A DNA stretch of 64,000 bases. Origin: an uncultured Oxalobacteraceae bacterium (GTDB taxonomy: Bacteria > Pseudomonadota > Gammaproteobacteria > Burkholderiales > Burkholderiaceae_D). Below, in pieces: positions 37,113-54,646 of this stretch. The notes under the pieces are model-generated. The model had not been told where the DNA came from, did not search any database, and worked only from the letters and a program-made list of their open reading frames with translations. The position numbers and the translations under genes were made by a program. Location: the NCBI GenBank assembly GCA_903893945.1, contig CAITOF010000042.1, positions 80,425 to 144,424 on the forward strand. The letters run 5' to 3'. Numbering within the stretch: the stretch's first letter is position 1; each line of letters begins with the position of its first letter.

Positions 37113-38090
<978 letters not shown>

Positions 38091-38172
38091 CCTGTACCGT
38101 ACACTGTATTAACCAATTCCGCGCACAAAAACCGCAGGCGAACTACAATATGGCATTCTTCACTTCAGGAGT

Positions 38173-38640
38173 ATGCACATGCCTGCCCCAAATGACGCTC
38201 TTGCTGCCCATCTGGCTTTGACAAAAGCCATCGTTGATCAGGCGCCGGACGCGATAATCTTTGTCGATCCCGATGGAATCATCCGCATCTGGAACGATGG
38301 CGCGGAACGAATTTTTGGTCATGATGCAGCCGATGTCGTCGGTGGAACGCTGGACGTGATCATCCCGGAACGGCTGGTGCGCGCCCATAACGACGGCTTC
38401 GGTCATGCGATGACGACCGGTCAGATGAAGTATGTTAACAAAGTCCTGACAACCCGATCCATGCACAAGGACGGCAGCAAGCTTTACGTCGACCTGAGTT
38501 TTGGCATGGTGCACGATCCGGACGGTCACATACTCGGTGCACTGGCCATCGCCCGTGATACCACCGAACGCTATACCCACGATGCAGCACAACGTGCGCG
38601 CATCGCCGAACTTGAAAAAGCGGCCCAGAATCCGGGTTGA
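38173..38640 (+). CDS. Stand-alone PAS-domain protein
   Basis: DAIIFVDPDGIIRIWNDGAERIFG, HKDG, GALAIARD; no output domain. Confidence 0.85.
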   Translation: MHMPAPNDALAAHLALTKAIVDQAPDAIIFVDPDGIIRIWNDGAERIFGHDAADVVGGTLDVIIPERLVRAHNDGFGHAMTTGQMKYVNKVLTTRSMHKDGSKLYVDLSFGMVHDPDGHILGALAIARDTTERYTHDAAQRARIAELEKAAQNPG

Positions 38641-38659
38641 CAGGGTGACCGTGCAACGC

Positions 38660-39622
38660 CTATCCGGACAGTGTCCTGACTTTCGACCGGTTTGACACGG
38701 GCGGCTTCGCGCCCACAACCTGCTCAATCAGCCCAGGCCCATCACGCAGCAGAAATTTCTTGAAGGCCTCAGCGACCGGCGGCAGCCGTTTGCTGTTGCG
38801 ATGGACTACATACCAGTTCAGCATCAACGGAAAATTCACCACATCGAGAACGACCAGACTCTTTGCCTTTAATTCCAGTCCGATGGTATGCGCTGACAGA
38901 AAGCTGACCCCCATGCCGGCAATGACTGCCTGTTTGATCGTTTCGGTACTTTTAATTTCCATCGCGATTTTTAGCTGGGCAAAATGGTTGCCCAACCCTT
39001 CCTCCATGGAATGCCAGGTGTCCGAGCCTTTTTCCCGCACAACAAACTGCTCGCACATCAGAACATCCATCGGAATACGGCGCACTTTGGCCAGAGGGTG
39101 ATCCGGGGCAGCAACGATCACATAGGGATGCGGTGCAAAGGCCAGATTGACCGTATCCAGATCAACCGGTGGTCGAACCATAATCGCCAGGTCAGTCAGG
39201 TTCTTTGCGAGCTGGTTCAATAACTCTTCCCGGTTATGCACGGTGAAATTGAGCGACACCCCGGAATGGCCACGCGCAAACTCCACCAGCAGGCGCGGAA
39301 AAAAATAATCGCCGGCGCTGATTACCGCCACATTCAGCTTGCCGCCCGAGATCCCCTTGAAAAGGGACATCGCCTGTTCGGCCGACTGGAACTGCTGGAT
39401 AATCACCCGGCTGTAACTCAACAGCTCCACCCCGGCAGGTGTCAGGTAGATCTTTTTTCCCAACTGCTCGAATAACGCCAACCCGACCCGGTCTTCCAGC
39501 TTCCTGACCTGAGTCGACACGGCCGGCTGGGTCAGATGCAATTCCTCGGATGCACGTGAAAAACTGGCCAGTCGCGCGACGGCTTCAAAAACCTTTAACT
39601 GTCGCAGCGTGGCATTTTTCAT
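38660..39622 (-). CDS. LysR-family regulator, CbbR/CmpR-like
   Basis: TLRQLKVFEAVAR..SFSRASEELHLTQPAVSTQVRKLE, VVREKGSDT, ETIKQAVIAGMGVSFLS, WYVVHRNSKRLPPVAEAF. Confidence 0.9.
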   Translation of the reverse strand: MKNATLRQLKVFEAVARLASFSRASEELHLTQPAVSTQVRKLEDRVGLALFEQLGKKIYLTPAGVELLSYSRVIIQQFQSAEQAMSLFKGISGGKLNVAVISAGDYFFPRLLVEFARGHSGVSLNFTVHNREELLNQLAKNLTDLAIMVRPPVDLDTVNLAFAPHPYVIVAAPDHPLAKVRRIPMDVLMCEQFVVREKGSDTWHSMEEGLGNHFAQLKIAMEIKSTETIKQAVIAGMGVSFLSAHTIGLELKAKSLVVLDVVNFPLMLNWYVVHRNSKRLPPVAEAFKKFLLRDGPGLIEQVVGAKPPVSNRSKVRTLSG

Positions 39623-39630
39623 CAGGTCGG

Positions 39631-40575
39631 TCAGGCACCCATCAGTGACCGGATGTGGGCCGCGGTACCACTTGCCAGACCCTCCATGCTGTAGCCGCCT
39701 TCAAGAACCGAAACCATGCGTCCATTGCAGCAGGCGTCTGCAACCTTGACCAGCTCGTCGGTTATCCAGTGAAAATCATCATCATCAAAATTCAGTCCGG
39801 CCAGCGGATCCAGACGGTGCGCATCAAAGCCGGCTGATATGATGATGAGGCCGGGATTGAAACTGCGCAGCGCGGGCAGCATTTCCGTTTCGACCCGGGA
39901 CCGGAACAAGGCCGAATCGCAGCCGCGCGGCAATGGCAGATTGACGATGTTGTCACTCACCCCGGTCTCTGACTGGGCACCGGTACCCGGATAAAACGGT
40001 GCCTGATGACTGGACGCATAAAACAGTTCTGGCCGGTTGTAAAATGCACTCTGCGTGCCATTGCCATGGTGAACATCAAAATCGACCACCGCCACCCGTT
40101 GCAGCTGATAGCGCTCGCTCGCATACGCCGCGGCAATGGCAGCCTGGTTAAAAATGCAGAAACCCATGGCCCTGCCGGGTTCGGCATGATGGCCGCACGG
40201 CCTTGTCGCACAAAACACTTTACTGATGCCGCTGTCCTGGCCATTCCCCATCACCACATCAACACCGGCACAGGCCGCGCCGACACAGCGCATCACGGCT
40301 TCCCAGGACCCGGGCGACATCACCGTGTCGCCGCCATCGAGTGGCACATAGCCCTGTTTGGGTGCGAGCTGCGCGATGTCATCGTAAAAGTCCGGGTCAT
40401 GGATCAGCTCGACCTGCTCGCGCGTACCAATAGGCGCTTCACGCCACTGCAGGTCGGCAAACTCCGGCGTTCTCAGCGCATTCCATACCGCCAGTAACCG
40501 TTCAGGTGACTCGGGATGGTTGGGCCCGGGCCGGTGCTCCAGGCAGGCTGCGTGTGTATAAACCAGAACCGTCAT
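39631..40575 (-). CDS. Histone deacetylase family Zn-dependent amidohydrolase
   Basis: HPESPERL, DGGDT, RPCGHHAE, GFCIFN, DFDVHHGNGTQ, ISAGFDAH, LEGGY. Confidence 0.93.
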   Translation of the reverse strand: MTVLVYTHAACLEHRPGPNHPESPERLLAVWNALRTPEFADLQWREAPIGTREQVELIHDPDFYDDIAQLAPKQGYVPLDGGDTVMSPGSWEAVMRCVGAACAGVDVVMGNGQDSGISKVFCATRPCGHHAEPGRAMGFCIFNQAAIAAAYASERYQLQRVAVVDFDVHHGNGTQSAFYNRPELFYASSHQAPFYPGTGAQSETGVSDNIVNLPLPRGCDSALFRSRVETEMLPALRSFNPGLIIISAGFDAHRLDPLAGLNFDDDDFHWITDELVKVADACCNGRMVSVLEGGYSMEGLASGTAAHIRSLMGA

Positions 40576-40656
40576 AGTGTCTTCCCCGTGTCCCGTGTTA
40601 TCAGGTTCAGTACGTTGTCTGTGGTGCGTCACCGCATCCGGTGCGCGCGCCAGACC

Positions 40657-41904
40657 CTAAATGATGCCGTCTGCGCGCAGCTCGTCAATCTCTTCCCTGC
40701 TGTAGCCAAGCTGCATCATCACCTCGTCGGTGTGCTCACCCAGCAGCGGAGAGCGCGTCACTTCGGTTTTACTGTCAGACATTTTGATCGGGTTGCCGAC
40801 CGTCAGATATTTGCCGCGCACCGGGTGGTCGATTTCAACGATCGTGCCGGTTTCACGCAGCGACGGCTCCTCGGCAATTTCCTTCATCGACAGAATCGGG
40901 CCGCACGGAATATCATACTGGTTCAGAATCTCCATCACCTCAAATTTGTCCTTGGTCTTGGTCCATTGTTCGATGCGCGCGAAAATCGGCTTGAGGTGCA
41001 GCAGACGCGCTCCGGGCGTTGCGTAAGCAGCGTCGTCGATCCAGCTCTCTTCGCCAATCACCTTGCAGACCGCCGGCCAGACCGCGGCCTGTGTGATGAA
41101 ATAAATATAGGCGTTCGGGTCGGTTTCCCAGCCTTTGCATTTTAAAATCGAACCGGGCTGACCACCACCGGATGCATTGCCGGCACGCGGTACAGCATTG
41201 CCAAAATGTTCGTCCGGATACTGGGGATATTCCTTCATCACGCCGGTGCGCTCCAGACGTTGCTGGTCACGCAGCTTGACCCGGCACAGATTGAGGACAC
41301 TGTCCTGCATGGCGGCCAGGACCTTCTGTCCACGTCCGGTGCTGTTGCGCTGGTAAAGTGCGGCAACGATGCCGAGCGCCAGATGCAAGCCGGTACCACT
41401 GTCGCCAATCTGCGCGCCGGTGACCATGGGCGGACCATCAGGGAAGCCGGTCGTAGACGCAGATCCGCCCGCACATTGCGCGACATTTTCATACACCTTG
41501 CATAGCTCATACGGGCCCGGACCAAAACCTTTCACCGAGGCGACAATCATGCGTGGATTGAGTTCCTGTATCCGTTCCCAGGTGAAACCCATCCGGTCCA
41601 GCGCGCCAGGGGCAAAGTTTTCCACCATGACGTCACACGTCTTGATCAGCTTTTCCAGTACCGCCTTGCCTTTCGGCTTCTTGGTGTCCAGCGTGACAGA
41701 ACGCTTGTTATGATTAAGCATCGTGAAATACAGGCTGTCTGCATGCGGAATGTCACGCAATTGCGCCCGCGTGGCATCGCCATCCCCTGATTTTTCAACC
41801 TTAATCACATCCGCCCCGAACCACGCAAGCAACTGAGTACAGGTCGGCCCTGACTGGACATGCGTAAAATCCAGAATGCGAACGCCATCTAATGCCTTGC
41901 TCAT
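40657..41904 (-). CDS. frc: Formyl-CoA transferase (copy 1, class III CoA-transferase)
   Basis: [26 protein letters not shown], catalytic Asp in [15 protein letters not shown] loop. Confidence 0.92.
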
Positions 41905-42067
41905 GCACTTCTCCTGAGAATGAATTCACTGTGTTGTATCTGTATTGCCGTACAGTTTATATCATGATGGCGCGCAGTGACACGCCTTGACCGTTCCAGC
42001 CTGAACGACCGATAGCGCCAGCCGCACGCCGTTTGCTTACATCATAGGGTGGGCCACGACCGCTGCG

Positions 42068-42093
42068 CATTGACCATGGATAATTTTCATTGC
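42068..42093. promoter_or_regulatory. Oxalate-cluster shared motif, site 1 (upstream of frc copy 1)
   Basis: CATTGACCATGGATAATTTTCATTGC; 23/26 identical to 48358-48383. Confidence 0.65.
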
Positions 42094-42212
42094 CGCGTCA
42101 CCAATTTGTTGCCCCGCACCAAACCGCTATCAACCACACCGGATAGCAGAGCAAACAGTCATCCTTGGCCACCGCGCTGGCAGGCACAGGTTCTGTTGTT
42201 TTTTGTAAAAAA

Positions 42213-42226
42213 TTAACCTAGGTTAA
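42213..42226. promoter_or_regulatory. Oxalate-cluster shared motif, site 2 (upstream of porin)
   Basis: Perfect palindrome TTAACCTAGGTTAA. Confidence 0.6.
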
Positions 42227-42312
42227 CGCAGTTTGACCACTGATCTGAGCATGATGCACCGTGGTCACTAGATTCACCATGATTAAAATTAAAACCAAGC
42301 CAGGAGACACAA

Positions 42313-44052
42313 ATGAAGTTTACGTATAAACCTATAGTTGCTGCATTCGCAAGTATTTTCGCCGTCGGTGCTTTTTACTCAAGTGCGGCGTTGGCCGATA
42401 ACACGACAGATGACATCAACGCTCTCAAAGCGCAGATGAAAGCCCTCATGCAGAAAATTGACGACCTGTCAAAAAAACAGGAAGCCGCGGCACAGGCACC
42501 GGCCAATACCACCTCGGGGCCATTGGTTGAAAGAATGAGTGTACCGGATGGTTACAAGCCGGGCACAGTCAATATGCACACCGGACAGGCGAATCCGAAG
42601 GTGGTTGACAGCGGTAACTTTTTACACCGCGAACGCGACGACAGCCTGACCTTCAGTACCGGACAAAGCGGCGGCGGGGTTACCTTCTACGGTAACTTCA
42701 ACGTCTCCATCGATGATGCGGTCAACGGTATTGCCGGCGCACATAACGATGGTCAGCTCACCAACGGCGGGCTCGGCACCGGACCGTTTGGCAATACCGG
42801 TTGGATACCGGCCATTGCAACCAACAACACATATATAGGCTTGCGCGGCTTTCAACCGGTTGGCGGTTGGGATAATGCCCAGTTCCTGTGGCAATTGCAG
42901 ACCAATATCGCTTTGTCAGCATTGGCAGGTAGCGGAGAAACCAATTCAACCGTGTCCAACAGTGTCAACGGTGCGCTGACCACAGGTACCACCTATGTCG
43001 GATTCGGAAATGCTGGCTGGGGTTCGGTAAAAATCGGCAAAACCTATGCACCGTATGAGCTATCGACCCAGATTTTCAATCCGTTCCGCGGTATGCTGGG
43101 CAGCATGGGAACTGTTATGGGTAATACCGGCGGCGATAACCGGATCGAATTTGGCACACTGCTCGAGCATGCTTTATGGTATGAGTCGCCGAATTACGCC
43201 GGCTTGAGTTATTCGTTCCTGTTTGCACCTGGCCAGAACCTCGCCAACGATTCCAGTAGTTTGCCAAGGGGCGGTTCGAATTGCGCGGGCGGTGACACAC
43301 CGGGTAATGCCGGCAATGTCAATCTTGAAGGTCAGGTTGGCTGTAACGATGGTGGGTACAGCAACGCATTCAGTGCCAGTGTTGTTTATGACAATAAAAA
43401 AGACTGGTACGCAACGGCAGCCTACGAGACACATAGCAAGGTCAACCGTAGCAGCGATCTGGCGGGTGAAACAGCCTTACCAGCCGGTTATACCCATGCA
43501 CAACTGGACGCCCAGGATGTGGCTACCGAATGGGCTGGCAAAGTTGGCCTGATGTATAAAATCAGTTCGACTGGCACCAGCATCGGTGGTGTTTATGAAT
43601 GGTTGAGAAGAGATGTTCCGGACGATCTGCAGTATCAGAATGAGCGTTCTCGTACAGGGCACTGGTTACTTATCCAGCAGGATATAGCAGGCGGCAACCA
43701 GATCAATTTCGGTTGGGCGCATGCCGACAAGGCTAATGGCGATCCTGGTCAGCACAATGATTCAAGTATCGCAGGCTCACCTGGGCAACAACCTGACAAC
43801 TCGGCCAATATGTACAGTATCGCGTTCACGCACCAGGTTGACAGAAACCTTTCCTTCTATGCCAACTATGCCATTACAGAAAATGGCGCCGCAGCTCACT
43901 ATGATTTAGGTGCAGGTGGCCATGGTTATTATGTCGATTGCCATGATGCCGGCGGCCCGATTTCTGCCAGCGGTTTTATTGCATCCGGCCCCAACTGCTG
44001 GACAGGCACCAAGATTCAAGGTGTTACTGGAGGCATGCAATACCGTTTCTGA
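42313..44052 (+). CDS. Outer-membrane porin with N-terminal coiled coil
   Basis: Signal peptide, coiled coil DDINALKAQMKALMQKIDDLSKKQ, Gram-negative porin motifs (VTFYGNF, YIGLRG, WYESP, GWAHA, YANYA), C-terminal GMQYRF. Confidence 0.8.
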   Translation: MKFTYKPIVAAFASIFAVGAFYSSAALADNTTDDINALKAQMKALMQKIDDLSKKQEAAAQAPANTTSGPLVERMSVPDGYKPGTVNMHTGQANPKVVDSGNFLHRERDDSLTFSTGQSGGGVTFYGNFNVSIDDAVNGIAGAHNDGQLTNGGLGTGPFGNTGWIPAIATNNTYIGLRGFQPVGGWDNAQFLWQLQTNIALSALAGSGETNSTVSNSVNGALTTGTTYVGFGNAGWGSVKIGKTYAPYELSTQIFNPFRGMLGSMGTVMGNTGGDNRIEFGTLLEHALWYESPNYAGLSYSFLFAPGQNLANDSSSLPRGGSNCAGGDTPGNAGNVNLEGQVGCNDGGYSNAFSASVVYDNKKDWYATAAYETHSKVNRSSDLAGETALPAGYTHAQLDAQDVATEWAGKVGLMYKISSTGTSIGGVYEWLRRDVPDDLQYQNERSRTGHWLLIQQDIAGGNQINFGWAHADKANGDPGQHNDSSIAGSPGQQPDNSANMYSIAFTHQVDRNLSFYANYAITENGAAAHYDLGAGGHGYYVDCHDAGGPISASGFIASGPNCWTGTKIQGVTGGMQYRF

Positions 44053-44124
44053 CAGGACCAGCTGAAAGTGGAAAGTGCGCCGATCTGAAATTTGCACTGA
44101 ATCGGAACTGGCGCTCTCAGCCGC

Positions 44125-44158
44125 AAAAAAACCCGTCCTGACCAGGACGGGTTTTTTT
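44125..44158. terminator. Bidirectional intrinsic terminator
   Basis: A-run, CCCGTCCTG / CAGGACGGG stem, T-run; between convergent porin and binding-protein genes. Confidence 0.88.
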
Positions 44159-44240
44159 ATGGGCGGCAGCGGAAATACCAGGGAGGGTAGCCGTTTATGC
44201 CGCTGTCATCACGGGCCTCCGGCATTAATGTACGATCCGG

Positions 44241-45053
44241 TTACAGACCGAGACGGTTGGTCGCTTCATTCATCACGGCCGTATTCCACGGCACAAAACC
44301 GGTGATGTGCAGGCCGGCCAGCGCGGTTTTGCCTTCCTCCGAGTCGGACAGTTGCAGCAGCAATTTCTGTATTCTGGCGGTATCGTCCGAACTGAATCTG
44401 CGCGACACCAGAAACTGCTTGATCGGCACCGGTTTGGTCTCGGCAATAATGCGCCCCCCCTTGGCAACCCAGCTTTTCGCCACCGCAGCAGAGCCCGTCA
44501 CACCCGCATCCACATACCCGTAATCCAGCATGAACGGAACCGCATCCTGATAACGCGTTGGTGTAAATTGTTTGGCGGGATCGGCGACGCCGATTTCGCG
44601 CAAACTGGCCGAAAACATGCGCGTCACAATGGACTCCATGGAGGGCACACCAATTTTTTTACCGCGCAGATCGGCCAGTGAATTCAGCGGTGAATCGGCT
44701 TTGACCATCACGCGCGCACGATACTCGGTGTAGTCCCTGGCGGTTGCCAATCCCAGATATTTTCCGGATTTCGTTGCTGCCAGCCCTATGTGCGCCGGGT
44801 GGACAAACACCAGATCGATGCTCTCACTTGCCAATTCGCGATCGAAATCCGCATAGTGATTAATAACCTGCAACCTGATACTTCGTTTGAGTTCTTTGGA
44901 TAACAGGCTGATCAGCGGCTTAAAACGTTCACTGGCCAGACCGTCGTCCTGGTAGGTGACACCCTCATTGACAGCCAGCAGCAGATCTTGCGCCCACAGC
45001 GGGTATGACAAGAACAGCAGGATCGCAACACAGATTGTTTTTCGATAAAACAT
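44241..45053 (-). CDS. Phosphate/phosphonate-binding-like periplasmic protein (orphan)
   Basis: Signal peptide, FKPLISLLSKELK, IDLVFVHPAH, SPLNSLADLRGKKIG, VDAGVT. Confidence 0.75.
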   Translation of the reverse strand: MFYRKTICVAILLFLSYPLWAQDLLLAVNEGVTYQDDGLASERFKPLISLLSKELKRSIRLQVINHYADFDRELASESIDLVFVHPAHIGLAATKSGKYLGLATARDYTEYRARVMVKADSPLNSLADLRGKKIGVPSMESIVTRMFSASLREIGVADPAKQFTPTRYQDAVPFMLDYGYVDAGVTGSAAVAKSWVAKGGRIIAETKPVPIKQFLVSRRFSSDDTARIQKLLLQLSDSEEGKTALAGLHITGFVPWNTAVMNEATNRLGL

Positions 45054-45113
45054 GCCGGACCATTCTCAAATTAAAATGCGCAGGTTAAAGATAAACAGGC
45101 TGGGCAACATCAC

Positions 45114-45139
45114 CAAAACGGCACCCGATCGGGTGCCGT
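45114..45139 (-). terminator. Intrinsic terminator after frc copy 2
   Basis: ACGGCACCCG-AT-CGGGTGCCGT inverted repeat followed by TTTT on the minus strand. Confidence 0.75.
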
Positions 45140-45173
45140 CCAAAAACCACCGCGAGGGTCTGATACGCCGTGC

Positions 45174-46445
45174 CTAAACCGCTCCCGCCGTATGCAGCGC
45201 AGCGATCTGTTGCGCGCTGTACCCGAGGCTGGCCAGTACTTCGTCGGTATTTTCACCCAGCAATGGCGAACCGGTGATTTCAACCGTCATATCCGAAAAC
45301 TTGATCGGACTGCCGACCGTGAGATACTTGCCACGTGCTTTGTGATCCACTTCTGCAATGGTGCCGCTGGCCCGCAATGACGGATCATTGGCAAGTTCCT
45401 TCATGGTCAGAACCGGCGCGCAGGGAATGTCATATTTACGCAGCACATCCACCGCTTCAAACTTGGTTTTGTCTTTCAGCCAGTCTTCAATGATTTCAAA
45501 AATCTTGAAAATCTTGTCCTGACGTGCCGGTGCCGTGTTGTAGGCAGGATCATCGATCCATTCTTCCCTGCCCAGTGCCTTGCAGATCGGTGCCCAGGCA
45601 TGACCCTGAATCGTGAAATAGATATAGGCATTGGGATCAGTCTCCCAGCCTTTACACTTCAGCACCCAGCCTGGCTGACCGCCACCACCGGCATTACCGC
45701 CACGTGGCACGACATCAGAAAACTTGCCGTATTTGCCGTCTTCGCGTATCGGATATTGCGGATATTCTTCGAGGTAACCCAGGCGATCCAGACGCTGCTG
45801 GTCGCGCAGCTTGACGCGGCACAGATTGAGCACGCTGTCCTGCATGGATACCGCCACTTTTTGCCCTTTACCGGTTTTGTCGCGTCCAATCAGGGCGGTA
45901 AGAATACCGATTGCCAGATGCATGCCGGTGTTTGAGTCACCCAGCGCAGCCGCACTGATGGTCGGTGGACCGTCCCAGAAACCGGTGGTGGACGCCGCAC
46001 CGCCAGCGCATTGCGCCACGTTTTCATAGACTTTCAGATCTTCATAATGATGGCCGTCGCTGAAACCCTTTACCGACGCAACGATCATCTTGGGATTGAG
46101 TTCGTTAATCCGTTCCCAGGTAAATCCCATGCGGTCAAGCGCACCGGGACCAAAGTTTTCAACCATCACATCCGATTCGCGGATCAGTTTTTCCAGCACT
46201 TCTTTGCCTTCAGGCTTCTTGGTATCGAGTGTCAATGACCGTTTGTTGCTGTTCAACATGGTGAAATACAGCGCGTCAACATTGGGAATATCACGCAACT
46301 GACTGCGGGTCACATCGCCAGCTCCCGGACGTTCCACTTTAATGACGTCGGCGCCAAACCAGGCCAGTAACTGCGTACAGGCAGGTCCGGCCTGTACGTG
46401 CGTGAAGTCAATAATCTTAATTCCTGTCAGTGGTTTATTACTCAT
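45174..46445 (-). CDS. frc: Formyl-CoA transferase (copy 2)
   Basis: [29 protein letters not shown], catalytic Asp in [21 protein letters not shown] tetraglycine loop; directly downstream of oxc. Confidence 0.95.
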
Positions 46446-46532
46446 GATCCCTTATCTCCAATTCAATTGTTAAACTCAGTTTTTGAAACACCATTGTCTG
46501 CTCTGTCTTCGAAAATTACCATACATTCCGGA

Positions 46533-48242
46533 TTACTTTTTCGCTGCTGCACTTTGCGGGTTCAGGTTGGTCAGACGTCCGCTTTCGGTGCCGGCTGTCT
46601 CGTCGATGACGGCATTGATCAGTGCCGGCTTGCCGGCAGCAATCGCCTCGGTCAGCGCCTTGGTCAATTCTGCCGGTGTGGTCACGTTATAACCTATGCC
46701 ACCAAACGCTTCGATCATTTTGTCGTAACGCGCTCCTTTGACAAATACGGTCGGAGCCACATCTTTGCCACCGGTTGGATTGACATCCGTACCGCGGTAG
46801 ACACCATTATTGTTGAATATGATGGTCGTCACGGGCAGATGATAGCGACAGATCGTTTCGAGTTCCATGCCACTGAATCCGAACGCACTGTCGCCCTCGA
46901 TGGCCACCACCGGCAGGCCACTGGTCACCGCCGCACCAATCGCATAGCCCATACCGATACCCATGATACCCCATGTGCCGGAATCAAACCGCTTGCGCGG
47001 CTGGTACTGATCGATGATGCTGCGCGCGTAATCGAGCGTATTGGCGCCTTCGTTGACCAGATTGATGTCCGGATGGGCTTTGAGTACATCACGAATTGCA
47101 CGCAAGGCGCTGTGAAAATTCATCGGCGACGGATTCTGATCCAGCGTCACGGCCATCTTCGCCAGATTTTTATCCTTGCGCTCCCTGATCGCATCAGTCC
47201 ACTCGGCGCCAGGCTTGGCAAAACCCGTTTTGATGCCGGCCAGCAGCGCCGACACGCACGAGCCGATATCACCGATTACCGGTGCAGCAATGGCCACGTT
47301 ACTGTCAATCTCAGTCGGGGAGATGTCAACCTGGATGAACTGTTTCGGTCCACCCCAGGTTTTACCTTTACCATGGGAAAGCAGCCAGTTCAGCCGTGCA
47401 CCAATCAGCACCACCACATCCGCTTCGGCCAGCACAAACGAGCGTGCAGCCGATGCCGATTGCGGATGCGTATCCGGCAACAGACCTTTGGCCATTGACA
47501 TCGGCAGGTAGGGGATGCCGGACTGCTCGACAAACGCGCGAATATCGGCGTCGGCCTGGGCATACGCAGCCCCCTTACCAAGCAGTATCAGCGGGCGCTT
47601 GGCGCTTTTCAACAGGTCGAGCGCGCGCTGCACGGAATCAGGCGCAGGAATCTGGCGTGGCACCGGGTCCACCACGCGCACCAGTGATTTTTTGCCGTGC
47701 GCCGCGTCCAGTGTCTGACCGAGCAATTGTGCCGGCAGGTCCAGGTACACACCGCCGGGACGTCCGGAGACGGCGGCGCGAATGGCGCGCGCAATGCCGA
47801 TACCGATATCTTCGGCCTTGTTGACACGATAAGACGCCTTGGCATAGGGCTTGGCGGCGTTCAACTGATCCATTTCTTCGTAATCGCCCTGCTGCAGATC
47901 GACGATTTCGCGTTCACTGGATCCGCTGATCAGTATCATCGGAAAGCAGTTGGTTGTCGCGTTCGCGAGCGCCGTCAGGCCATTCAGAAAACCGGGGGCT
48001 GATACAGTCAGGCAAATCCCCGGCTTTTGTGTCATGTAGCCTGAAATGGCCGCCGCGTTACCGGCGTGCTGTTCATGACGGAAGCCGATAAATCGCATAC
48101 CTTCGGCCTGGGCCAACCGTGCCAGATCAGTAATCGGAATACCGACGAGCCCAAAGATTGTGTGTATATCGTTATGCTTTAACGCATCTATCACAAGATG
48201 AAATCCATCTGTAAGAGGTTGTGCCTGTGTCTCGTTTGTCAT
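46533..48242 (-). CDS. oxc: Oxalyl-CoA decarboxylase (ThDP-dependent)
   Basis: [23 protein letters not shown], ThDP motif [19 protein letters not shown]...[14 protein letters not shown]. Confidence 0.97.
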
Positions 48243-48357
48243 ATGAAGCTTCTCTTTGTTTTGGTTTCGATAAGGTTATGGCAACCCAGCCGCTAAAATG
48301 TCTCTGATGGGTCTATGTAGAGCCCTTCACATGTTAAAGACGCCGCTCCACATTAGT

Positions 48358-48383
48358 CATTGACCGTGGTTAATTTTTATTGC
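48358..48383. promoter_or_regulatory. Oxalate-cluster shared motif, site 3 (between oxc and the Crp/Fnr gene)
   Basis: CATTGACCGTGGTTAATTTTTATTGC; overlaps a plausible plus-strand promoter TTGACC-N17-CATGAT. Confidence 0.65.
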
Positions 48384-48433
48384 ATGATGGTAAAAACATT
48401 CACCATCCCATTTCCCTCTGGATTTCCCTTGTC

Positions 48434-49042
48434 ATGTCGTCTGTCGATCAACACCCGGAACGCAACGTAATTCGTGTCCAGCTCAAACAAAATGTCATAT
48501 TAGGTGGAATCAGTGATCAGGATATGGCTGAGCTTGAATCCGGTCTTACGCTGGTCGACTGTCATAAGGGCGACTACCTGCTGCACCAGGGGGTCCATGA
48601 AATGGAACAGTATTTCATCCTTGATGGCATACTGAAACGGGTGGTAACGAACCAGCAGGGCCATATGATGATATTGCGCTTTACCCATAGCCGCGATATC
48701 GAGACCAGTTACGCCGCCTGGCGACTGAAAACCCCGACACCGTACGGCATTCTGTGCGTCACCAACGCCCGGGTCGCCAAGATGCCAATGGCGCAGTGGG
48801 TCGCCTTTATTGAAAAACATGCATCACTCAAGGAATCGTTCGAATATGAGGTCATGCGGCTCATGAGCGAAATCATGGCCCATACCATTACCCTGAACCT
48901 GCTCGATGCGCCAGGCCGGGTACTGCGGTTCAGACGGAAACATACGGATCTCTTCAAGCTTATCCCGCAAAAGGAACTTGCTTCCTACCTGAATATCACG
49001 CCTGAAACATTGTCCAGATTGAAACGCCAGGGAAAGATCTAG
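48434..49042 (+). CDS. Crp/Fnr-family transcriptional regulator
   Basis: cNMP-binding-like LLHQG...YFILDGILK, HTH QKELASYLNITPETLSRLK; no Fnr N-terminal Cys cluster. Confidence 0.9.
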   Translation: MSSVDQHPERNVIRVQLKQNVILGGISDQDMAELESGLTLVDCHKGDYLLHQGVHEMEQYFILDGILKRVVTNQQGHMMILRFTHSRDIETSYAAWRLKTPTPYGILCVTNARVAKMPMAQWVAFIEKHASLKESFEYEVMRLMSEIMAHTITLNLLDAPGRVLRFRRKHTDLFKLIPQKELASYLNITPETLSRLKRQGKI

Positions 49043-49188
49043 CAGGCAGCGATCCGGAAACGGGCGCAACCCACCGTCTGCATCCTGCGCTGCCCTGCCG
49101 CGTGGACTCCCATTTGGCAAATCAGGTGATGTACTGATTATGCCCAAAGATATTCATGTTTTATATATCTGATATGTTTTATTTTGAA

Positions 49189-49217
49189 TTGACGCTCAAC
49201 AGGTCGACATTTATACT
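49189..49217 (+). promoter_or_regulatory. Sigma70 promoter of the 59-aa gene
   Basis: TTGACG (49189-49194), 17 bp, TATACT (49212-49217). Confidence 0.75.
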
Positions 49218-49258
49218 GCAATGCAATATGAATTTCTTACTAACCTGGAGTTTTTATC

Positions 49259-49438
49259 ATGTCAACTACATTAAAAGCCAATTCAGCTGATTTTCTGGGC
49301 AATCAATCCGCCGCACCGACTGTGGCCGTTACGCTGGCGACTGTTTTAGCCACACTGTTTGCTGTCAAGGCACGCGAGTCAATCGACCAGGCTACTTCGG
49401 GCGACAAATCAGACGCCGCCTGGATCTGGGGTCTGTAA
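49259..49438 (+). CDS. Small protein of unknown function (59 aa, below ORF-track cutoff)
   Basis: MSTTLKANSADFLGNQSAAPTVAVTLATVLATLFAVKARESIDQATSGDKSDAAWIWGL; GGAG RBS and near-consensus promoter upstream, hairpin downstream. Confidence 0.75.
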   Translation: MSTTLKANSADFLGNQSAAPTVAVTLATVLATLFAVKARESIDQATSGDKSDAAWIWGL

Positions 49439-49449
49439 TTCAGCCGTTT

Positions 49450-49487
49450 TAAAAACGCCATTGATCATCCTTGAATGGTCAATGGCG
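49450..49487. terminator. Terminator hairpin between the convergent small gene and panE-like gene
   Basis: GCCATTGATCAT-CCTTGA-ATGGTCAATGGC, with a T-run on the minus strand. Confidence 0.6.
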
Positions 49488-49529
49488 CATTGTTCACCTG
49501 CAGCATTTTCAACGTGTGGCGGGCTTGGA

Positions 49530-50540
49530 TCAGGCCATTTTCCGCATTTTCACGTGCCCTTCCTCTTCCATCATTGACTTCCCGAGCAACTTGACCAGCG
49601 CATAAACCGTGCTGATATGCGGTGTTGGCGTATGTGTCAAATGTCCCAATTCGACCACCGAGCCGACCAGCGCCTCAATCTCAACCGACCGCCCTGCTTC
49701 AACATCCTGCAGCATGGAGGTTTTGTGCTTACCCACTTTTTCAGCACCTTCAATGCGCTTTTCCAGCGGCACCCGAAACTCGATACCGAAGTGGGTCGCA
49801 ATGGCCTGGGCTTCGCGCATCATGTTTTTGGCCAGCTCCCGCGTCAGCGGATATTGACAAATATCGACCAGGGTCGAATGGGCCAGCGCACTGATCGGAT
49901 TAAACGTCAGGTTTCCCCATAATTTAAGCCAGATTTCGGAACGGATATTGTCCAGCACCGGCGCCTTGAATCCGGCCTGGGTAAAGCATTCGGAGACCCG
50001 GGTCACTCTGGCGCTGACAGAACCGTCCAGCTCACCGACCGGAAACCGGTTACCTTCGATGTGACGGACAACCCCCGGGGAAACCAGCTCCGAGGCCGGA
50101 TAGACCACGCAACCGATAACACGTTCAGGCGGAATTTTTTCCAGTATCGCCCCGGTCGGATCAACGCTGTGCACCCGATTCCCCTCAAACTTACCACCAT
50201 GCTTATGAAAATACCAATACGGGATTCCATTCTGCATGGTGACCACAACGGTCTCCGGGCCGAACAATTTCGGCACATCCTCGGCGACGGCCAGAACCTG
50301 ATTTGCCTTCAGGGCCAGAATCACCATATCCTGCGGACCCGCTTCCGCATAATCGTTGGTCGCGACCACTCCACGTGCGACCTGTTGCGTACCATCCTCC
50401 AGGATCAGCGTCATTCCATTTTTTCTAATCGCGTCAAGGTTCGCGCCCCTGACCATGAACGTCACCTGCTCCCCAGCCAGAGCCAATTTCACTCCCAGGT
50501 AACCTCCTATTGCACCCGCGCCAACAATTGCAATTTTCAT
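49530..50540 (-). CDS. panE: 2-dehydropantoate 2-reductase family protein (candidate oxalyl-CoA reductase)
   Basis: KIAIVGAGAIGG, LALKA, MQNGIP, WLKLWGNLTFNPISAL, KTSMLQDVEAGRSVE. Confidence 0.85.
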   Translation of the reverse strand: MKIAIVGAGAIGGYLGVKLALAGEQVTFMVRGANLDAIRKNGMTLILEDGTQQVARGVVATNDYAEAGPQDMVILALKANQVLAVAEDVPKLFGPETVVVTMQNGIPYWYFHKHGGKFEGNRVHSVDPTGAILEKIPPERVIGCVVYPASELVSPGVVRHIEGNRFPVGELDGSVSARVTRVSECFTQAGFKAPVLDNIRSEIWLKLWGNLTFNPISALAHSTLVDICQYPLTRELAKNMMREAQAIATHFGIEFRVPLEKRIEGAEKVGKHKTSMLQDVEAGRSVEIEALVGSVVELGHLTHTPTPHISTVYALVKLLGKSMMEEEGHVKMRKMA

Positions 50541-50562
50541 ATCCACACCCTTCAATACATAG

Positions 50563-51330
50563 CTAATCAAACCGGTTGCTGAGTTTGCCAATACCTGTAA
50601 TTTCGACGTCGACCGTGCTGCCCGGCTTCATCGAACCAACACCCACTGACGTACCACACAAAATGATATCGCCGGGGTTCAAACTCATATCCTGTGAAAC
50701 CAGGCTGACCAGGTGGGCAACCGAAAACAGCATGTCGCTGACTGGATATTCCTGTCTTACTGTGCCATTGAGCGTCGTTTTCACAACCAGTGTCGCAGGG
50801 TCAAGCCCGGTGGCGATTACCGGCCCGAACGGACAGAACGTATCAAATCCCTTGGCGCGCACCCATTGGGCAAACGACGGGTCACGATTCAGAATTTCAG
50901 CTGCCGTCACGTCGTTGGCGCAGGTATAACCGAACACATAGTCCATCGCCTTGTCGACAGGCACGGCTTTGCACGGCTTGCCGATGACTATGCCCAGCTC
51001 ACCCTCAAACACCACCTTGCCGGCGGCGAGCGGTTGCCGAATCACCTCGTCCGGGTTCAGATAGGAATTCGGCGCTTTAATCAGATACAGGGGTTCGGCA
51101 GGCACCGACAGATTCAGTTTCTTGCCCATCGCAGCAAAATTATTCCACATCGCCAGAATTTTACTCGGGGTGGTTGGCATCAGCAGCTTTACGTTGTGCA
51201 GATCAAACACCTGGTTCGAGAGCGTCGGATTGGTGAACATGTCGCCTTCATAGCCTTGAATGGTGTCACCTTCAAGCAGTCCAAAATGGACGGCATCTGC
51301 ATGTAAGAAGCGTACCCAGTGTTGTCCCAT
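50563..51330 (-). CDS. Fumarylacetoacetate hydrolase (FAH)-family protein
   Basis: PSKILAMWNN, FEGELGIVIGK, GYTCANDVTA, KGFDTFCPFGP, PGDIILCGT. Confidence 0.9.
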   Translation of the reverse strand: MGQHWVRFLHADAVHFGLLEGDTIQGYEGDMFTNPTLSNQVFDLHNVKLLMPTTPSKILAMWNNFAAMGKKLNLSVPAEPLYLIKAPNSYLNPDEVIRQPLAAGKVVFEGELGIVIGKPCKAVPVDKAMDYVFGYTCANDVTAAEILNRDPSFAQWVRAKGFDTFCPFGPVIATGLDPATLVVKTTLNGTVRQEYPVSDMLFSVAHLVSLVSQDMSLNPGDIILCGTSVGVGSMKPGSTVDVEITGIGKLSNRFD

Positions 51331-51573
51331 CTGATGACCTTTTCCCCAAATAAATAACGCTAGATTACGACAGCAGCATGCCGGCAAATGCAACAGCAGG
51401 CAAATGCGCGCGTCGATGCCGGCGCACTGTCAGACAACGGTGAAAGGAATTATCGCATCATGCCAATATCATGCGGTAGCGGCTCGCACCTGGAACTCAA
51501 AAACGAAGTTCCAGGTACGTCCTCTGGCATATTCAGCGTACTAACAAAGACGTTATGGTCTTTTCAGGATAAC

Positions 51574-52932
51574 TCAGCCAGCCCTGTGGGTATGCAGCTT
51601 GAGTTCGTCGATGGTCTTGGATTTTTGATCCGCGGCACTGCTGTCGGTACGACTTGTATTGACACTATCGATCAATTTCTTGCGCATCGGAGCCAGCACG
51701 AATTTGGCGGCGAACGCAGCTGCAATGGTGATTGCAGCGGACGCCATAAATACCCGATCCCAGTTACCCCCTGCAGACAGCACCGACGCCAGCGGCACGA
51801 GCAATGATGCAGTTCCTTTTGCCGTGTACAGTGTGCCCGCATTGGCGGCAGCGTATTTAACCCCGAACGTATCGGCACAGATGGCTGGGAAAATTGAAAA
51901 AATCTCACCCCAGAAAAGGAATATCAGCGCGGCGAATGTCATGAATGCCACCGGATCGTGACCAAACTGCATCAGACCCAGCATAGACAGTCCTTCACCG
52001 AGAAACACGACAAACATCGTATTCTCACGCCCAATCCGGTCAGAGATGAAACCGCACAGCGGCCGTGTGAAACCGTTGCACAGATTATCGATCGACAGCG
52101 TCATGGTCAGCAGTGGCAATGTGAGTCCGAACAGGGCAATCGGCATTTTTGCCAGCCCATAATCTTTGGCAATAGGACCGATCTGCGCTGTCGCCATCAA
52201 ACCGCCCGCGGCGACGGCAACAAACAGGATGTAGACCAACCAGAACAATGGGGTTTTGATCATTTTTCCTGTTGTATAGTCGACTTTGGTGGTCACCAGT
52301 CTCGGCGCAGGTCGTACGCCCTCCAGCGGTCTGGGTCGCACCATGAACATCGCCAGAATGAAGATGCATATGCCCTGCCCGATACCAAAAAACAGAAAGG
52401 CATGCTCATAGCCCGAACTCTGTATCATGTTTGCAATCGGAATCACGGTGACTGCCGCACCCGCCCCGAATCCTGCGGCAGTCAGTCCCGCCGCCAGACC
52501 GCGTTTGTCCGGAAACCATTTCAGGGCATTGCCCACACAGGTGCCGTACACACAACCGGCACCGATACCGGCCACCACCGCAGCAAGATAAAGCTCAGGC
52601 AGGGTCGTAGCAAATGAATCGATGATCCAGCCGGTGGCGGCAAACAGGGCACCGACAGCCACGACCGGGCGCGGGCCAAATTTATCCACCAGCCAGCCTT
52701 CAACCGGCACCAGCCAGGTCTCGACAAGAATAAAAATTGAAAATGACAGTTGTATAGCGGACAGACCCCAATGGTTTTTCGCTTCCATGGGACTTACGAA
52801 CAGGGTCCAGGCGTATTGAAGATTGGCTACCAATCCCATACAAATAATGCCGAATACAAGCTGAAGCCATCGATTTACTGGCTTTTCAGGACTACCAGGG
52901 CGAGCCCCGGTAACTTGGGTTTCTTGACTCAT
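51574..52932 (-). CDS. oxlT: Oxalate/formate antiporter (MFS, OFA family)
   Basis: NRWLQLVFGIICM...ANLQYAWTLF, ALKWFPDKRGLAAG, RPLCGFISDRIGRE, LYTAKG. Confidence 0.92.
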   Translation of the reverse strand: MSQETQVTGARPGSPEKPVNRWLQLVFGIICMGLVANLQYAWTLFVSPMEAKNHWGLSAIQLSFSIFILVETWLVPVEGWLVDKFGPRPVVAVGALFAATGWIIDSFATTLPELYLAAVVAGIGAGCVYGTCVGNALKWFPDKRGLAAGLTAAGFGAGAAVTVIPIANMIQSSGYEHAFLFFGIGQGICIFILAMFMVRPRPLEGVRPAPRLVTTKVDYTTGKMIKTPLFWLVYILFVAVAAGGLMATAQIGPIAKDYGLAKMPIALFGLTLPLLTMTLSIDNLCNGFTRPLCGFISDRIGRENTMFVVFLGEGLSMLGLMQFGHDPVAFMTFAALIFLFWGEIFSIFPAICADTFGVKYAAANAGTLYTAKGTASLLVPLASVLSAGGNWDRVFMASAAITIAAAFAAKFVLAPMRKKLIDSVNTSRTDSSAADQKSKTIDELKLHTHRAG

Positions 52933-53180
52933 GAAATTTATCTCCGGAATATTTTTATATGAACTTCATTACACACTTTTTGTGTGGTCTGCAGCGTACG
53001 GATCCTGATTCAATAATGCAATCAAGATACGACACAAGATCCGCTTCACCTGTACGATACAGTTCGTTCTGACCTTTGCTGTCACCGTTGTCTGGACGAT
53101 CGATAACAGCAACTGGCACAGCCCGACGTGTCCGGGAAATTGAATCTCAGTAAGAGAGTGACAGAACCGAACCGGATCGT

Positions 53181-53206
53181 CCTTGACTTCGGTTAAGATT
53201 TATTAT
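53181..53206. promoter_or_regulatory. Oxalate-cluster shared motif, site 4 (upstream of oxlT)
   Basis: CCTTGACTTCGGTTAAGATTTATTAT; 18/26 identical to site 3, same orientation relative to the minus-strand operon. Confidence 0.5.
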
Positions 53207-53261
53207 CTGTCCCGGATTACTCTTTACTCCGGGCAACAGGTCAATGTACGATCGTCGATCC

Positions 53262-53597
53262 TCAGAAGCCAACTTCGTGCCGCTGGATTTCAGCCCAGTC
53301 TATCGGTGCAGCGGCACGTGCGCCACGTGCAACAATTAACTCATAACAGCGGTTTTTTGCCGTGTGGATCATATCGGTCAAAAAATGAACATCATAGGCT
53401 TTGAGCAGGTGCGCCTGTTGGGTTTCCAGATAAGTCTGGATACTCGATTTCGCCCCGTCGTGGCTCTGAAGGTGCTGGTAAATCTCCTCATTCCAGTGCC
53501 ACTTCAGTCCCAGTTCACAAAAGGCCGCATTGTAGGCGTCCAAATGTATATCAATCGGGTTTTCTGCTGAAAGATCTTTGCTGGCTGCACTGCACAT
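53262..53597 (-). CDS. Small protein resembling the cap region of the HAD phosphatase CbbY, without the catalytic core
   Basis: HLDAYNAAFCELGLKWHWNEEIYQHL...IHTAKNRCYEL; GGGGAG RBS before the ATG; no DxD motif. Confidence 0.7.
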   Translation of the reverse strand: MCSAASKDLSAENPIDIHLDAYNAAFCELGLKWHWNEEIYQHLQSHDGAKSSIQTYLETQQAHLLKAYDVHFLTDMIHTAKNRCYELIVARGARAAAPIDWAEIQRHEVGF

Positions 53598-53897
53598 AAT
53601 GGCTCCCCTTCGCTGGTTAGTCTAGGCTTTCAGACACGTTTCGCTTCAATGCGAAACCTTGGGAAGCATCGTATTCTCAATGAATGATAAGTAATAGTTA
53701 AAGTTTTTAATAAAAATCATAACGTTTTGCTTATGATCTTCTTGAAATTTGAAGCGCGGCAGTACTGCCATACGCAGCCCGCGTCCTGTGCCGGCGCGGT
53801 AATTGTGCGAGTGCAGCAAATATTCTATCAAAACCTGCTGATAATACTGTATAAATTGAGTTATATTAATTGTGCGACTGCACAAAAGGAGGTCGGC

Positions 53898-54068
53898 ATG
53901 CCGTTATTACCTGAGTCACCCCAGGAACCATGGAACCATTATTTTCCACTTATCCCGTGCCATAAACCGTCTGCCCATCCCTTTGAAATCGAAGACTGTA
54001 TGGAATGGCAAATTCCTCGCGTCCCATTAAAGGACCTCCCGGTAGGCCTGATTTCGGATGAGATATGA
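53898..54068 (+). CDS. Putative 56-aa Pro-rich small protein
   Basis: AGGAGG at 53887-53892 before ATG 53898; MPLLPESPQEPWNHYFPLIPCHKPSAHPFEIEDCMEWQIPRVPLKDLPVGLISDEI. Confidence 0.45.
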   Translation: MPLLPESPQEPWNHYFPLIPCHKPSAHPFEIEDCMEWQIPRVPLKDLPVGLISDEI

Positions 54069-54171
54069 GTTTTTCCATACACTAGTTCAGAAAACGCCAA
54101 CCGGCTGGCGGATAAAACCTTGAACTGCCTGGATGAAGTTCATGCAGTTCAATGAACAACTGATAGTCAAT

Positions 54172-54310
54172 TCATGCGTTGACAGCCAATTTACGTAACA
54201 CTTTCGGGTATTCAGATGCCACGCGTAAGGGGGTGAGCGCCGCGCCAGACGGTTTCCGCCTGCCCTGCTCCCAATCTTGAAGCGTTCGCACTGTCGACAA
54301 TACGCCGACT
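54172..54310 (-). pseudogene. C-terminal remnant of an XRE-HTH (HigA/MqsA/YiaG-like) antitoxin
   Basis: Hand translation VGVLSTVRTLQDWEQGRRKPSGAALTPLRVASEYPKVLRKLAVNA*; an in-frame stop lies shortly upstream and there is no ATG. Confidence 0.7.
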
Positions 54311-54646
54311 ATCAAATGCTTCCTTTGCCAGACCAGGCATCCCTAATGATCGAATCAAAAAATGTTTATCTATCGCAGGACAAACATGTTTTTATAAGTA
54401 ATGTCTAAACGGTTCAGGAAGGATTGAAAACAGCCGGCAAGTTACGCGCGCCATGGCATTTGATAAACGTCTGCTGCATAACATGAAGTCTTGTTGAAAA
54501 GTATCCATTCTGATTTTACGTGAACGGCGCCAATGTACCTGTTAAAAGCCAGTTGGATTCCATTTGCATACGCTCGATGTTTGCCGTGACGATTCAATAC
54601 GACGTTGTACATAACTGTCATTCAACATCACATTTAGCAGAGGCAA

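Follow-up and report, generated by a model that had tools for sequence, protein, structure and literature searches.

A conserved 14-bp palindrome and a short Crp/Fnr-family protein as predicted operator and regulator of oxalate genes in an Oxalobacteraceae bacterium

Introduction

According to a 2024 review (PMC13409138), little work has addressed how oxc (oxalyl-CoA decarboxylase) and frc (formyl-CoA transferase) are regulated, except for the influence of pH in gut bacteria. An 11-kb oxalate cluster in the draft genome of an uncultured Oxalobacteraceae bacterium (3.65 Mb, 52.6% G+C) raises this question for a defined set of promoters. The cluster lies in the 64-kb window analyzed here (positions 80425-144424 of contig C42, GenBank CAITOF010000042.1), and a preliminary description of this window had noted a motif, TTRAC-N4-GWTAA, upstream of four of its transcription units. 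That description named two possible binders, a CbbR-like LysR protein and a Crp/Fnr protein with an ETLSR recognition helix, and proposed that one of them was a dedicated oxalate or formate regulator with a definable operator. Both proteins are indeed encoded in the cluster, the Crp/Fnr-family one with the helix sequence PETLSRL. Here we ask which of the two recognizes the motif and how it would act on the oxalate genes. Comparison with related genomes indicates that the four boxes are very probably operators of the local Crp/Fnr-family protein, because this protein co-occurs with oxc without exception (9/9 genomes), divergently adjoins the best box almost everywhere, and because the LysR protein is absent from several oxc-positive genomes.

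Four related boxes in the oxalate cluster

In the 64-kb window the motif TTRAC-N4-GWTAA is confined to positions 42070, 42213, 48360 and 53183, in agreement with the preliminary description; these four sites (five matches, one site being palindromic) compare with 0.36 ± 0.67 expected, and none of 100 shuffled sequences reached five. Read in gene direction, the window boxes conform to TTAWCC-N2-RGTYAA, and they are best understood as slightly degenerate copies of the 14-bp palindrome TTGACC-N2-GGTCAA. The sites at boxes 1 and 3 are identical at 23 of 26 positions, a previously noted match which includes a TTTT.ATTGC tail, and the two are paralogous promoter copies. The coordinates of the boxes, of the predicted promoter elements and of the genes discussed below are collected in Table 1.

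Table 1. Predicted operators, promoter elements and genes of the oxalate cluster (window coordinates).
Feature	Position	Strand	Description
Box 1	42070..42083	-	forward letters TTGACCATGGATAA; towards frc1 TTATCCATGGTCAA; centre 42076.5, 172.5 bp from frc1 start codon
Flank ("tail") of box 1	42084..42093	-	TTTTCATTGC; gene direction GCAATGAAAA, just upstream of box 1; counterpart at box 3 is 48374-48383
Box 2	42213..42226	+	TTAACCTAGGTTAA; centre 42219.5, 93.5 bp 5' of porin start codon
Box 3 (primary predicted operator)	48360..48373	.	TTGACCGTGGTTAA; towards oxc TTAACCACGGTCAA; centre 48366.5; oxc/regulator intergenic region
Box 4	53183..53196	-	forward letters TTGACTTCGGTTAA; towards oxlT TTAACCGAAGTCAA; centre 53189.5, 257.5 bp from oxlT start codon
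Predicted -10, frc1-hdac-lysR promoter	42041..42046	-	TATGAT; 30.5 bp from box 1 centre
Predicted -10, porin promoter	42250..42255	+	CATGAT; 30.5 bp from box 2 centre
Predicted -10, oxc-frc2 promoter	48331..48336	-	TAACAT; starts 30.5 bp from box 3 centre; inferred start near 48324; no -35
Predicted weak -10, oxlT-fah-panE promoter	53155..53160	-	CACTCT; 29.5 bp from box 4 centre
Predicted -10, regulator's own promoter	48383..48388	+	CATGAT; -35 is the left half of box 3 (TTGACC, 48360-48365); 17-bp spacer
Crp/Fnr-family regulator gene	48434..49042	+	202 amino acids, cysteine-poor; proposed binder of the boxes
frc1-hdac-lysR	38660..41904	-	formyl-CoA transferase, HDAC-family deacylase, CbbR-like LysR regulator; predicted target operon
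Porin	42313..44052	+	579-amino-acid outer-membrane porin (Porin_4); predicted target gene
oxc-frc2-binding protein	44241..48242	-	oxalyl-CoA decarboxylase, second formyl-CoA transferase, phosphonate-binding-type periplasmic binding protein; predicted target operon
oxlT-fah-panE	49530..52932	-	oxalate/formate antiporter, FAH-family hydrolase, PanE-like reductase; predicted target operon

At the genome level, the loose motif was found at 17 positions, four of them in the 11-kb cluster, and the palindromic form TTRAC-N4-GTYAA at six positions, three of them in the cluster. A weight matrix built solely from sites in other genomes placed box 3 at the top of all 3.65 million positions of this genome (18.5 bits), followed by box 4 at rank 10 (15.9 bits), box 2 at rank 62 (12.8 bits) and box 1 at rank 138 (11.5 bits; 25th among non-coding matches). 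Matches of at least 11.5 bits numbered 142, of which 25 lie outside open reading frames (ORFs) of 150 or more amino acids. The cluster boxes make up four of these 25, and the probability that at least four of 25 non-coding matches fall within the 928 bp of the three intergenic regions is 2.7e-7. Background frequency had been named in the preliminary description as a point on which the motif might fail; these counts, the matrix statistic and the palindrome-to-control comparison given below place it far from background.

Other strong matrix matches (C90:942, C106:43871, C99:17944, C5:47635 and C54:31068) were rejected as lying inside long ORFs, and several of the non-coding matches are canonical TTGAT-N4-ATCAA FNR boxes. 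As the remaining strong matches are thus intragenic or of the canonical FNR type, the regulon appears confined to the cluster in this genome; the genome-wide matrix scan established no regulon member outside it.

Conservation of the box in relatives

The corresponding loci of relatives were collected with one genome per species, which gave at least 520 relatives; the best 80 loci were retained and come from Collimonas, Herminiimonas, Oxalicibacterium, Polaromonas, Ramlibacter, Massilia, Duganella, Undibacterium, Gallionella, Azoarcus and others. When these were searched with TTGAC-N4-GTCAA, allowing at most one mismatch, 79 of the loci had a box directly 5' of the regulator gene, nearly always in the order oxc< [box] crp>; the single exception starts only 63 bp before the regulator gene. 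Positions 6 and 9 lie outside the search pattern, yet position 6 is C in 77 of 78 sites and position 9 is G in 75 of 78, and both hold in the window boxes as well. Each position of the box carries 1.8-2.0 bits of information, against mostly 0.1-0.5 in the flanks, and because of this contrast the conservation is taken to represent a phylogenetic footprint. The motif is thus conserved in orthologous promoters, a point which the preliminary description had proposed as a check.

The flank noted at boxes 1 and 3 extends to other genomes, as a gc(g/a)atGAAAA sequence also precedes the box at the oxc and frc1 promoters of relatives and the TTTTC flank is kept in 64-72 of 78 loci; in the window, an A-rich flank is found ahead of each of the four boxes. 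The upstream gc(g/a)atGAAAA flank doubles as the spacer of the regulator's own promoter. In a comparison of 41 related genomes, Crp/Fnr orthologues (58-75% identity) were found in 12, usually divergent from oxc, and the intergenic regions of these orthologues hold the perfect palindrome TTGACC-N2-GGTCAA.

The genes preceded by boxes in relatives include oxc, frc1 and oxlT, and in addition a TctC-like binding protein gene in 25 loci, sucC in 8 and the gene of a NuoF-like formate dehydrogenase subunit in 4. Perfect boxes are found upstream of frc1, porin homologues have an upstream box in three of the four relatives possessing one, and orthologous boxes of the form aatcTTAACCnnGGTCAAgga are located between orf111 and oxlT.

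Identity of the binding regulator

The distribution of the two candidate regulators was compared to that of oxc, the presence of which was defined as a TIGR03254 match above cut-off. The oxc gene was found in 9 of the 41 relatives, all nine of which encode the Crp/Fnr orthologue, and in none of the 29 relatives lacking that orthologue; the three genomes that have the regulator but not oxc are either fragmentary at this locus or of a completeness below 90%. The perfect palindrome outnumbers its reversed control by 32 to 0 in regulator-positive genomes, compared to 18 versus 14 in the rest. In one genome (G025), a box lies 283 bp ahead of oxc and the regulator is encoded on another contig. Taken with the conservation and frequency described above, these results support the proposal of a dedicated oxalate regulon in which the shared motif is the operator of one of the two local regulators.

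The LysR protein (38660-39622) could in principle bind the boxes as a TNA-N7-TNA or T-N11-A operator. All four window boxes formally fit the CbbR-type TNA-N7-TNA pattern, as the preliminary description had pointed out, lysR itself lies in the cluster, and orthologues of 73-75% identity are found near oxalate genes in several Oxalobacteraceae. The pattern is not conserved, however: in relatives, all 78 primary sites have CAA as the third block, for which reason the fit is best regarded as a coincidence of the degenerate half-sites of this genome. Nor does the gene follow the boxes, since only 5 of 41 relatives encode a LysR orthologue of 60% identity or more. At E ≤ 1e-60, G025, G030 and G038, which have both oxc and the box, gave no match, and the matches in G031 and G036 were only paralogues of 43-52% identity encoded elsewhere. 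A 6-2-6 palindrome at a fixed position of -41.5 is moreover an architecture of the Crp/Fnr type and not of the LysR type. On account of the phyletic pattern and the loss of TNA-N7-TNA in relatives, LysR was rejected as the binder, and we consider its binding to the boxes scarcely credible.

The resemblance to the Fnr box, which had been noted alongside the CbbR pattern, turned out to be the meaningful one, and it raises the alternative that global FNR/Dnr/Anr-like proteins with an ETVSR helix (encoded on contigs C68 and C46) are the main binders, in which case the boxes would tie the oxalate genes to oxygen or nitric oxide (NO) instead of oxalate. FNR binds TTGAT-N4-ATCAA centred at -41.5 at class II promoters, the same position as that inferred for the boxes; the 5-4-5 geometry and the TTGA core are common to both, and the genome contains 15 canonical TTGAT-N4-ATCAA boxes besides the two ETVSR regulators. 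The oxalate boxes nevertheless differ systematically from TTGAT-N4-ATCAA: of 78 sites, 75 have C at position 5 and 77 have C at position 6. Furthermore, TTGACC-N2-GGTCAA exceeds its control only in genomes with the local regulator, and the box tracks oxc and the local regulator gene across the order. Control by the global proteins is thus judged highly improbable, and the local Crp/Fnr-family protein is retained as the binder in what follows.

Promoter geometry and proposed mechanism

Each of the four operon promoters has a predicted -10 hexamer at 29.5 or 30.5 bp from the centre of its box (Table 1), and a sigma-70 scan found no -35/-10 pair at any of them; such a pair was found only for the regulator's own promoter, where TTGACC-17-CATGAT at 48360-48388 was called independently by the scan. 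The arrangement recurs in relatives: 34 of 42 oxc promoters have TATGAT at +29.5/+30.5 from the box centre, and the hexamer was found at no other offset. The frc1 and oxc promoters of relatives share both hexamer and spacing with the frc1 promoter of the window. This offset is occupied by CACAAT in the oxlT and sucC promoters and by CACTAT in those of tctC, and GCATGAT is kept at the position of the regulator promoter. Assuming the usual 7 bp from the hexamer to the transcription start, the box centre would lie at about -41.5/-42.5, and this spacing to a -10 without a -35 fits class II Crp/Fnr-dependent promoters.

We propose that a dimer of the 202-residue Crp/Fnr protein recognizes TTGACC-N2-GGTCAA through its FNR-type E--SR helix, and that the promoter-distal half-site has changed to TTAACC or TTATCC in this lineage. 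The protein would act as a class II activator at frc1-hdac-lysR, the porin gene, oxc-frc2 and oxlT-fah-panE, recruiting RNA polymerase where a -10 without a -35 lies beneath the box, so that oxalate uptake and catabolism would be switched on together. At its own promoter, box 3 would supply the -35, and because of this overlap binding is predicted to repress the regulator gene. The LysR protein, encoded by the last gene of a box-controlled operon, would accordingly be a downstream member of the regulon and not its master. The signal is probably oxalate or a metabolite derived from it (oxalyl-CoA, formyl-CoA or formate). We infer binding, the sign of regulation and the signal, with activation at -41.5 and autorepression read from geometry only; that the boxes are operators of the local Crp/Fnr protein is put forward with considerable confidence.

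The same protein might instead bind the boxes purely as a repressor that is released by oxalate. Repression is known from some members of the Crp/Fnr family, and at the regulator's own promoter the box does overlap the -35. The catabolic promoters, in contrast, combine a -10 and no -35 with a box exactly at the class II position in every operon and lineage examined, a fixed 41.5-bp register which a repressor would not need. A role confined to repression is therefore regarded as very unlikely.

Several observations weigh against the proposed mechanism. At least two other Crp/Fnr proteins of the E--SR type (ETVSR) are encoded in the genome and could also touch these boxes. None of the sites of this genome is a perfect palindrome, and the -10 of oxlT (CACTCT) is poor and would imply a leader of about 216 nt. 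The 80 loci are phylogenetically related, so that counts such as 79 of 80 do not represent independent events. Finally, boxes 1 and 2 depart from the consensus at two positions each and rank only 138 and 62, and could be weak or non-functional. Taken further, this last point would restrict function to boxes 3 and 4 and make boxes 1 and 2 decayed relics of promoter duplication or chance matches. More than 100 other genome positions, mostly coding, score as well as these two boxes (11.5 and 12.8 bits), and the 23/26 identity of sites 1 and 3 demonstrates common descent without proving function. Boxes 1 and 2, on the other hand, still have C6 and G9, are preceded by the A-tract and are followed at precisely +30.5 by a -10 hexamer; strong boxes are present at the orthologous frc1 and porin promoters of relatives, and four of only 25 non-coding matches fall within 928 bp. 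We hold it unlikely that boxes 3 and 4 alone are functional, and retain the reading in which all four boxes serve as operators.

The Crp/Fnr-family regulator and its known relatives

The regulator was compared to characterized members of the Crp/Fnr family. Among sequence profiles, PF00027 scores 27.5 bits, exactly at its cut-off, and PF13545 matches only partially with 20.1 bits, below its cut-off of 27 bits; no fitting model was found in NCBIfam. At least 7970 homologues exist, carrying only generic or misleading names such as "CRP-like cAMP-binding protein" and "dissimilatory nitrate respiration regulator". Orthologues of 58-78% identity adjoin oxc in relatives. An AlphaFold2 model (pLDDT, predicted local distance difference test, 88) shows beta-roll strands from residue 39 to 118, a long helix (130-153) and a helix-turn-helix (179-185 and 190-198). 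The top Foldseek matches are GlxR, the mycobacterial CRP, Escherichia coli CRP and Aliivibrio fischeri FNR, with template modelling (TM) scores of 0.66-0.80 at only 16-19% identity, and the full-length matches to GlxR, CRP and FNR have E-values of about 1e-12 to 1e-10. The model thus predicts a Crp/Fnr fold, comprising a beta-roll, a long central helix and a C-terminal helix-turn-helix.

The protein ends with ...NITPETLSRLKRQGKI, its C-terminus lying seven residues after the recognition helix (PETLSRL), and the model contains no strand after helix 190-198 that could form a C-terminal wing; the truncation is alike in 24 of 24 aligned orthologues and in PDB entry 3dn7. ETLSR is invariant across the aligned orthologues. 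The cysteine cluster of FNR was not found, as residues 1-41 contain no cysteine and the only two cysteines, C42 and C108, are not in invariant columns. The cAMP (cyclic AMP) contacts of CRP, E72, R82 and S83, align to S92, T102 and P103. As the FNR cysteine cluster is lacking and the cAMP contacts are replaced, the effector would be neither oxygen sensed through an Fe-S cluster nor cAMP, and a metabolite of the oxalate pathway is the natural guess. The invariant columns of the 24 orthologues are unusually rich in methionine and histidine (H7 in an N-terminal HPE motif, M57, M79, M141, M144, M148 and H150); these residues could simply reflect core packing, or they could point to a metal or haem cofactor of the kind present in CooA and DNR.

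Among characterized regulators, FNR of E. coli and A. fischeri is one of the closest counterparts. The regulator shares the fold (TM 0.74-0.80 to A. fischeri FNR) and the E--SR helix; both palindromes have a 5-4-5 layout around a TTGA core, and the inferred location of the box over a -10 that lacks a -35 is common to both as well. Unlike FNR, it has no N-terminal cysteine cluster and no C-terminal wing, and the identity is only 16-19%. The two boxes have TTGA....TCAA in common but differ at positions 5-6, which are CC in the oxalate box and T plus any base in the FNR box. Whereas FNR is a global oxygen sensor, the regulator is local and encoded next to its predicted targets. The best structural matches, which are also profile matches, are to E. 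coli CRP/CAP and to GlxR and the Mycobacterium tuberculosis CRP (MtbCRP), with which the regulator shares a dimeric architecture of beta-roll and helix-turn-helix as well as, by prediction, class II activation; in contrast to CRP, its cAMP contacts are replaced, its recognition helix is not RE--R and its box is not TGTGA-N6-TCACA.

CprK of Desulfitobacterium, which belongs to the Crp/Fnr family, responds to a small organic substrate by activating a local catabolic cluster via "dehaloboxes", TTAAT-N4-ATTAA. In concept, the role proposed for the regulator is alike, namely that of a Crp/Fnr member free of a cysteine cluster which serves one catabolic cluster through several 14-bp 5-4-5 palindromes at class II positions; effector chemistry, box sequence and taxon differ. 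The closest solved relative in sequence is 3dn7 from Cytophaga hutchinsonii, a structural genomics entry of unknown function (E = 2.6e-13, residues 26-199), which is equally short and ends just after the recognition helix, with PEYLSE in place of the PETLSR of the regulator. The regulator is thus predicted to work in the manner of FNR at class II promoters. The missing cysteines and the different box show that it is not FNR itself, and it represents a new, locally acting subfamily of a well-known family.

Operator drift in the lineage of the window

The oxc and frc boxes of relatives are symmetric, with TTGACC as the distal half in 50 of 53 and as the proximal half in 46 of 53, and a distal TTAACC is found at 7 of 14 oxlT boxes and at all eight sucC boxes. 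In the window, the distal half is degenerate in every box. A metagenomic contig with a 91%-identical regulator has the same TTGACCGTGGTTAA, and in addition TTGACGGCGGTTAA ahead of oxlT; where the regulator is 80% identical, the contig carries the perfect TTGACCGCGGTCAA. The two GTTAA genomes encode NITPETLSR, TLNLL and RVLRF where the others have N(L/M)SPETLSR, TLHLL and RVHRF; the substitutions beside the recognition helix are thus LS or MS to IT before PETLSR, and H to N and H to L in TLHLLDAPGRVHRF. Operator drift together with these helix-side substitutions, seen in a single lineage, is suggestive of co-evolution of regulator and operator.

Novelty and implications

A literature search for a named oxalate regulator of this type found no description, and a search for the palindrome itself yielded only a paper on a Pseudomonas katA promoter. 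The regulator and its regulon are therefore apparently undescribed; the mechanism, class II activation by a Crp/Fnr dimer, is textbook. As a broader, tentative reading that we would place somewhat below even chances, the short, wing-less and cysteine-poor Crp/Fnr clade may be the dedicated oxalate sensor of Burkholderiales, its beta-roll directly binding oxalate, oxalyl-CoA, formyl-CoA or formate, and a master activator of oxalotrophy that acts on a specific porin, OxlT, TctC, Frc/Oxc, formate oxidation and the downstream LysR, with operator drift at all promoters towards an asymmetric form, TTAACC-N2-GGTCAA, in the lineage of the window.

With a conserved regulator, a defined 14-bp operator and a predictable regulon, the question of oxc and frc regulation would become directly testable, which addresses a recognized gap in the regulation of oxalate genes. 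The regulon would also provide oxalate-related assignments for otherwise anonymous members, namely the porin, the TctC-type and phosphonate-binding-type binding proteins, the HDAC-like deacylase and the FAH and PanE enzymes, and it could offer an oxalate-responsive promoter/regulator pair for biosensors.

Gene content and variation of the cluster

The genes of the cluster were assigned as in the preliminary description (frc1-hdac-lysR, porin, oxc-frc2 and oxlT-fah-panE), with the periplasmic binding protein now added to oxc-frc2. The oxc gene, both frc genes and oxlT score above NCBIfam equivalog cut-offs, and the LysR protein is CbbR-like, scoring below the cut-off of the CbbR model. No Rfam family was detected in the long oxlT leader or elsewhere in 38000-54500. 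The gene order of the oxc operon is also found in the contig of the relative with the 91%-identical regulator (L112). The binding protein (44241-45053; phosphonate-binding/SsuA-type) is encoded by the last gene of the oxc-frc2 operon, has no adjacent ATP-binding cassette (ABC) permease or ATPase, and is kept at 79% identity in the closest relative (L112/L113); it is a candidate oxalate- or formate-binding protein.

The ETVSR paralogues of the regulator, located at C68:73869-74093 and C46:3616-3837, have the helix LETVSR and no obvious N-terminal Cys-X2-Cys-X5-Cys; cross-talk of the canonical FNR-type set with the oxalate boxes is possible. Just 3' of the regulator gene, TTGACG at 49189 forms the -35 of a promoter-like site, TTGACG-17-TATACT, for an ORF of 59 amino acids (49189-49441), and a gene of exactly 59 amino acids is called at the same position in the contigs with 91%- and 80%-identical regulators (L112-L115). 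A box between the regulator gene and panE was not found in the window; such a box is common in relatives, there ahead of tctC. As distant relatives have a box and a tctC-like gene at this position, TTGACG may perhaps be the remnant of a former box.

The seven other genomes of the genus to which the window belongs (G001-G007, compared to G000) contain neither oxc nor the regulator gene. Within this genus the oxalate cluster is therefore an accessory trait that was either gained by horizontal transfer or retained in a patchy manner. The flank of the cluster is variable as well, as the 91%-identity relative (L112:1-5659) has glycerate-pathway genes where the window has the porin and frc1-hdac-lysR. 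These genes, which adjoin the binding protein-frc-oxc operon, encode a thiamine pyrophosphate enzyme like glyoxylate carboligase and proteins similar to hydroxypyruvate isomerase, tartronate semialdehyde reductase and glycerate kinase.

In Undibacterium arcticum KCTC 42986 (G023, C1:2124752-2153234; L002, L013 and L014-L016), the module of oxc, two boxes and regulator is duplicated in inverted orientation about 28 kb apart. Each copy has two perfect boxes 140 bp apart; one copy of oxc is split into two frames and the other lacks the first ~60 residues. In the contigs with the 80%-identical regulator (L114/L115), frc is followed in the oxc-frc operon by a gene for a small PAS-domain protein of 142 amino acids, and oxc is called as two pieces in L114. 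A second box, TTGATCGCGGTCAA, is present in these contigs inside or near a cluster encoding a GntR protein and a flavin adenine dinucleotide (FAD)-oxidoreductase.

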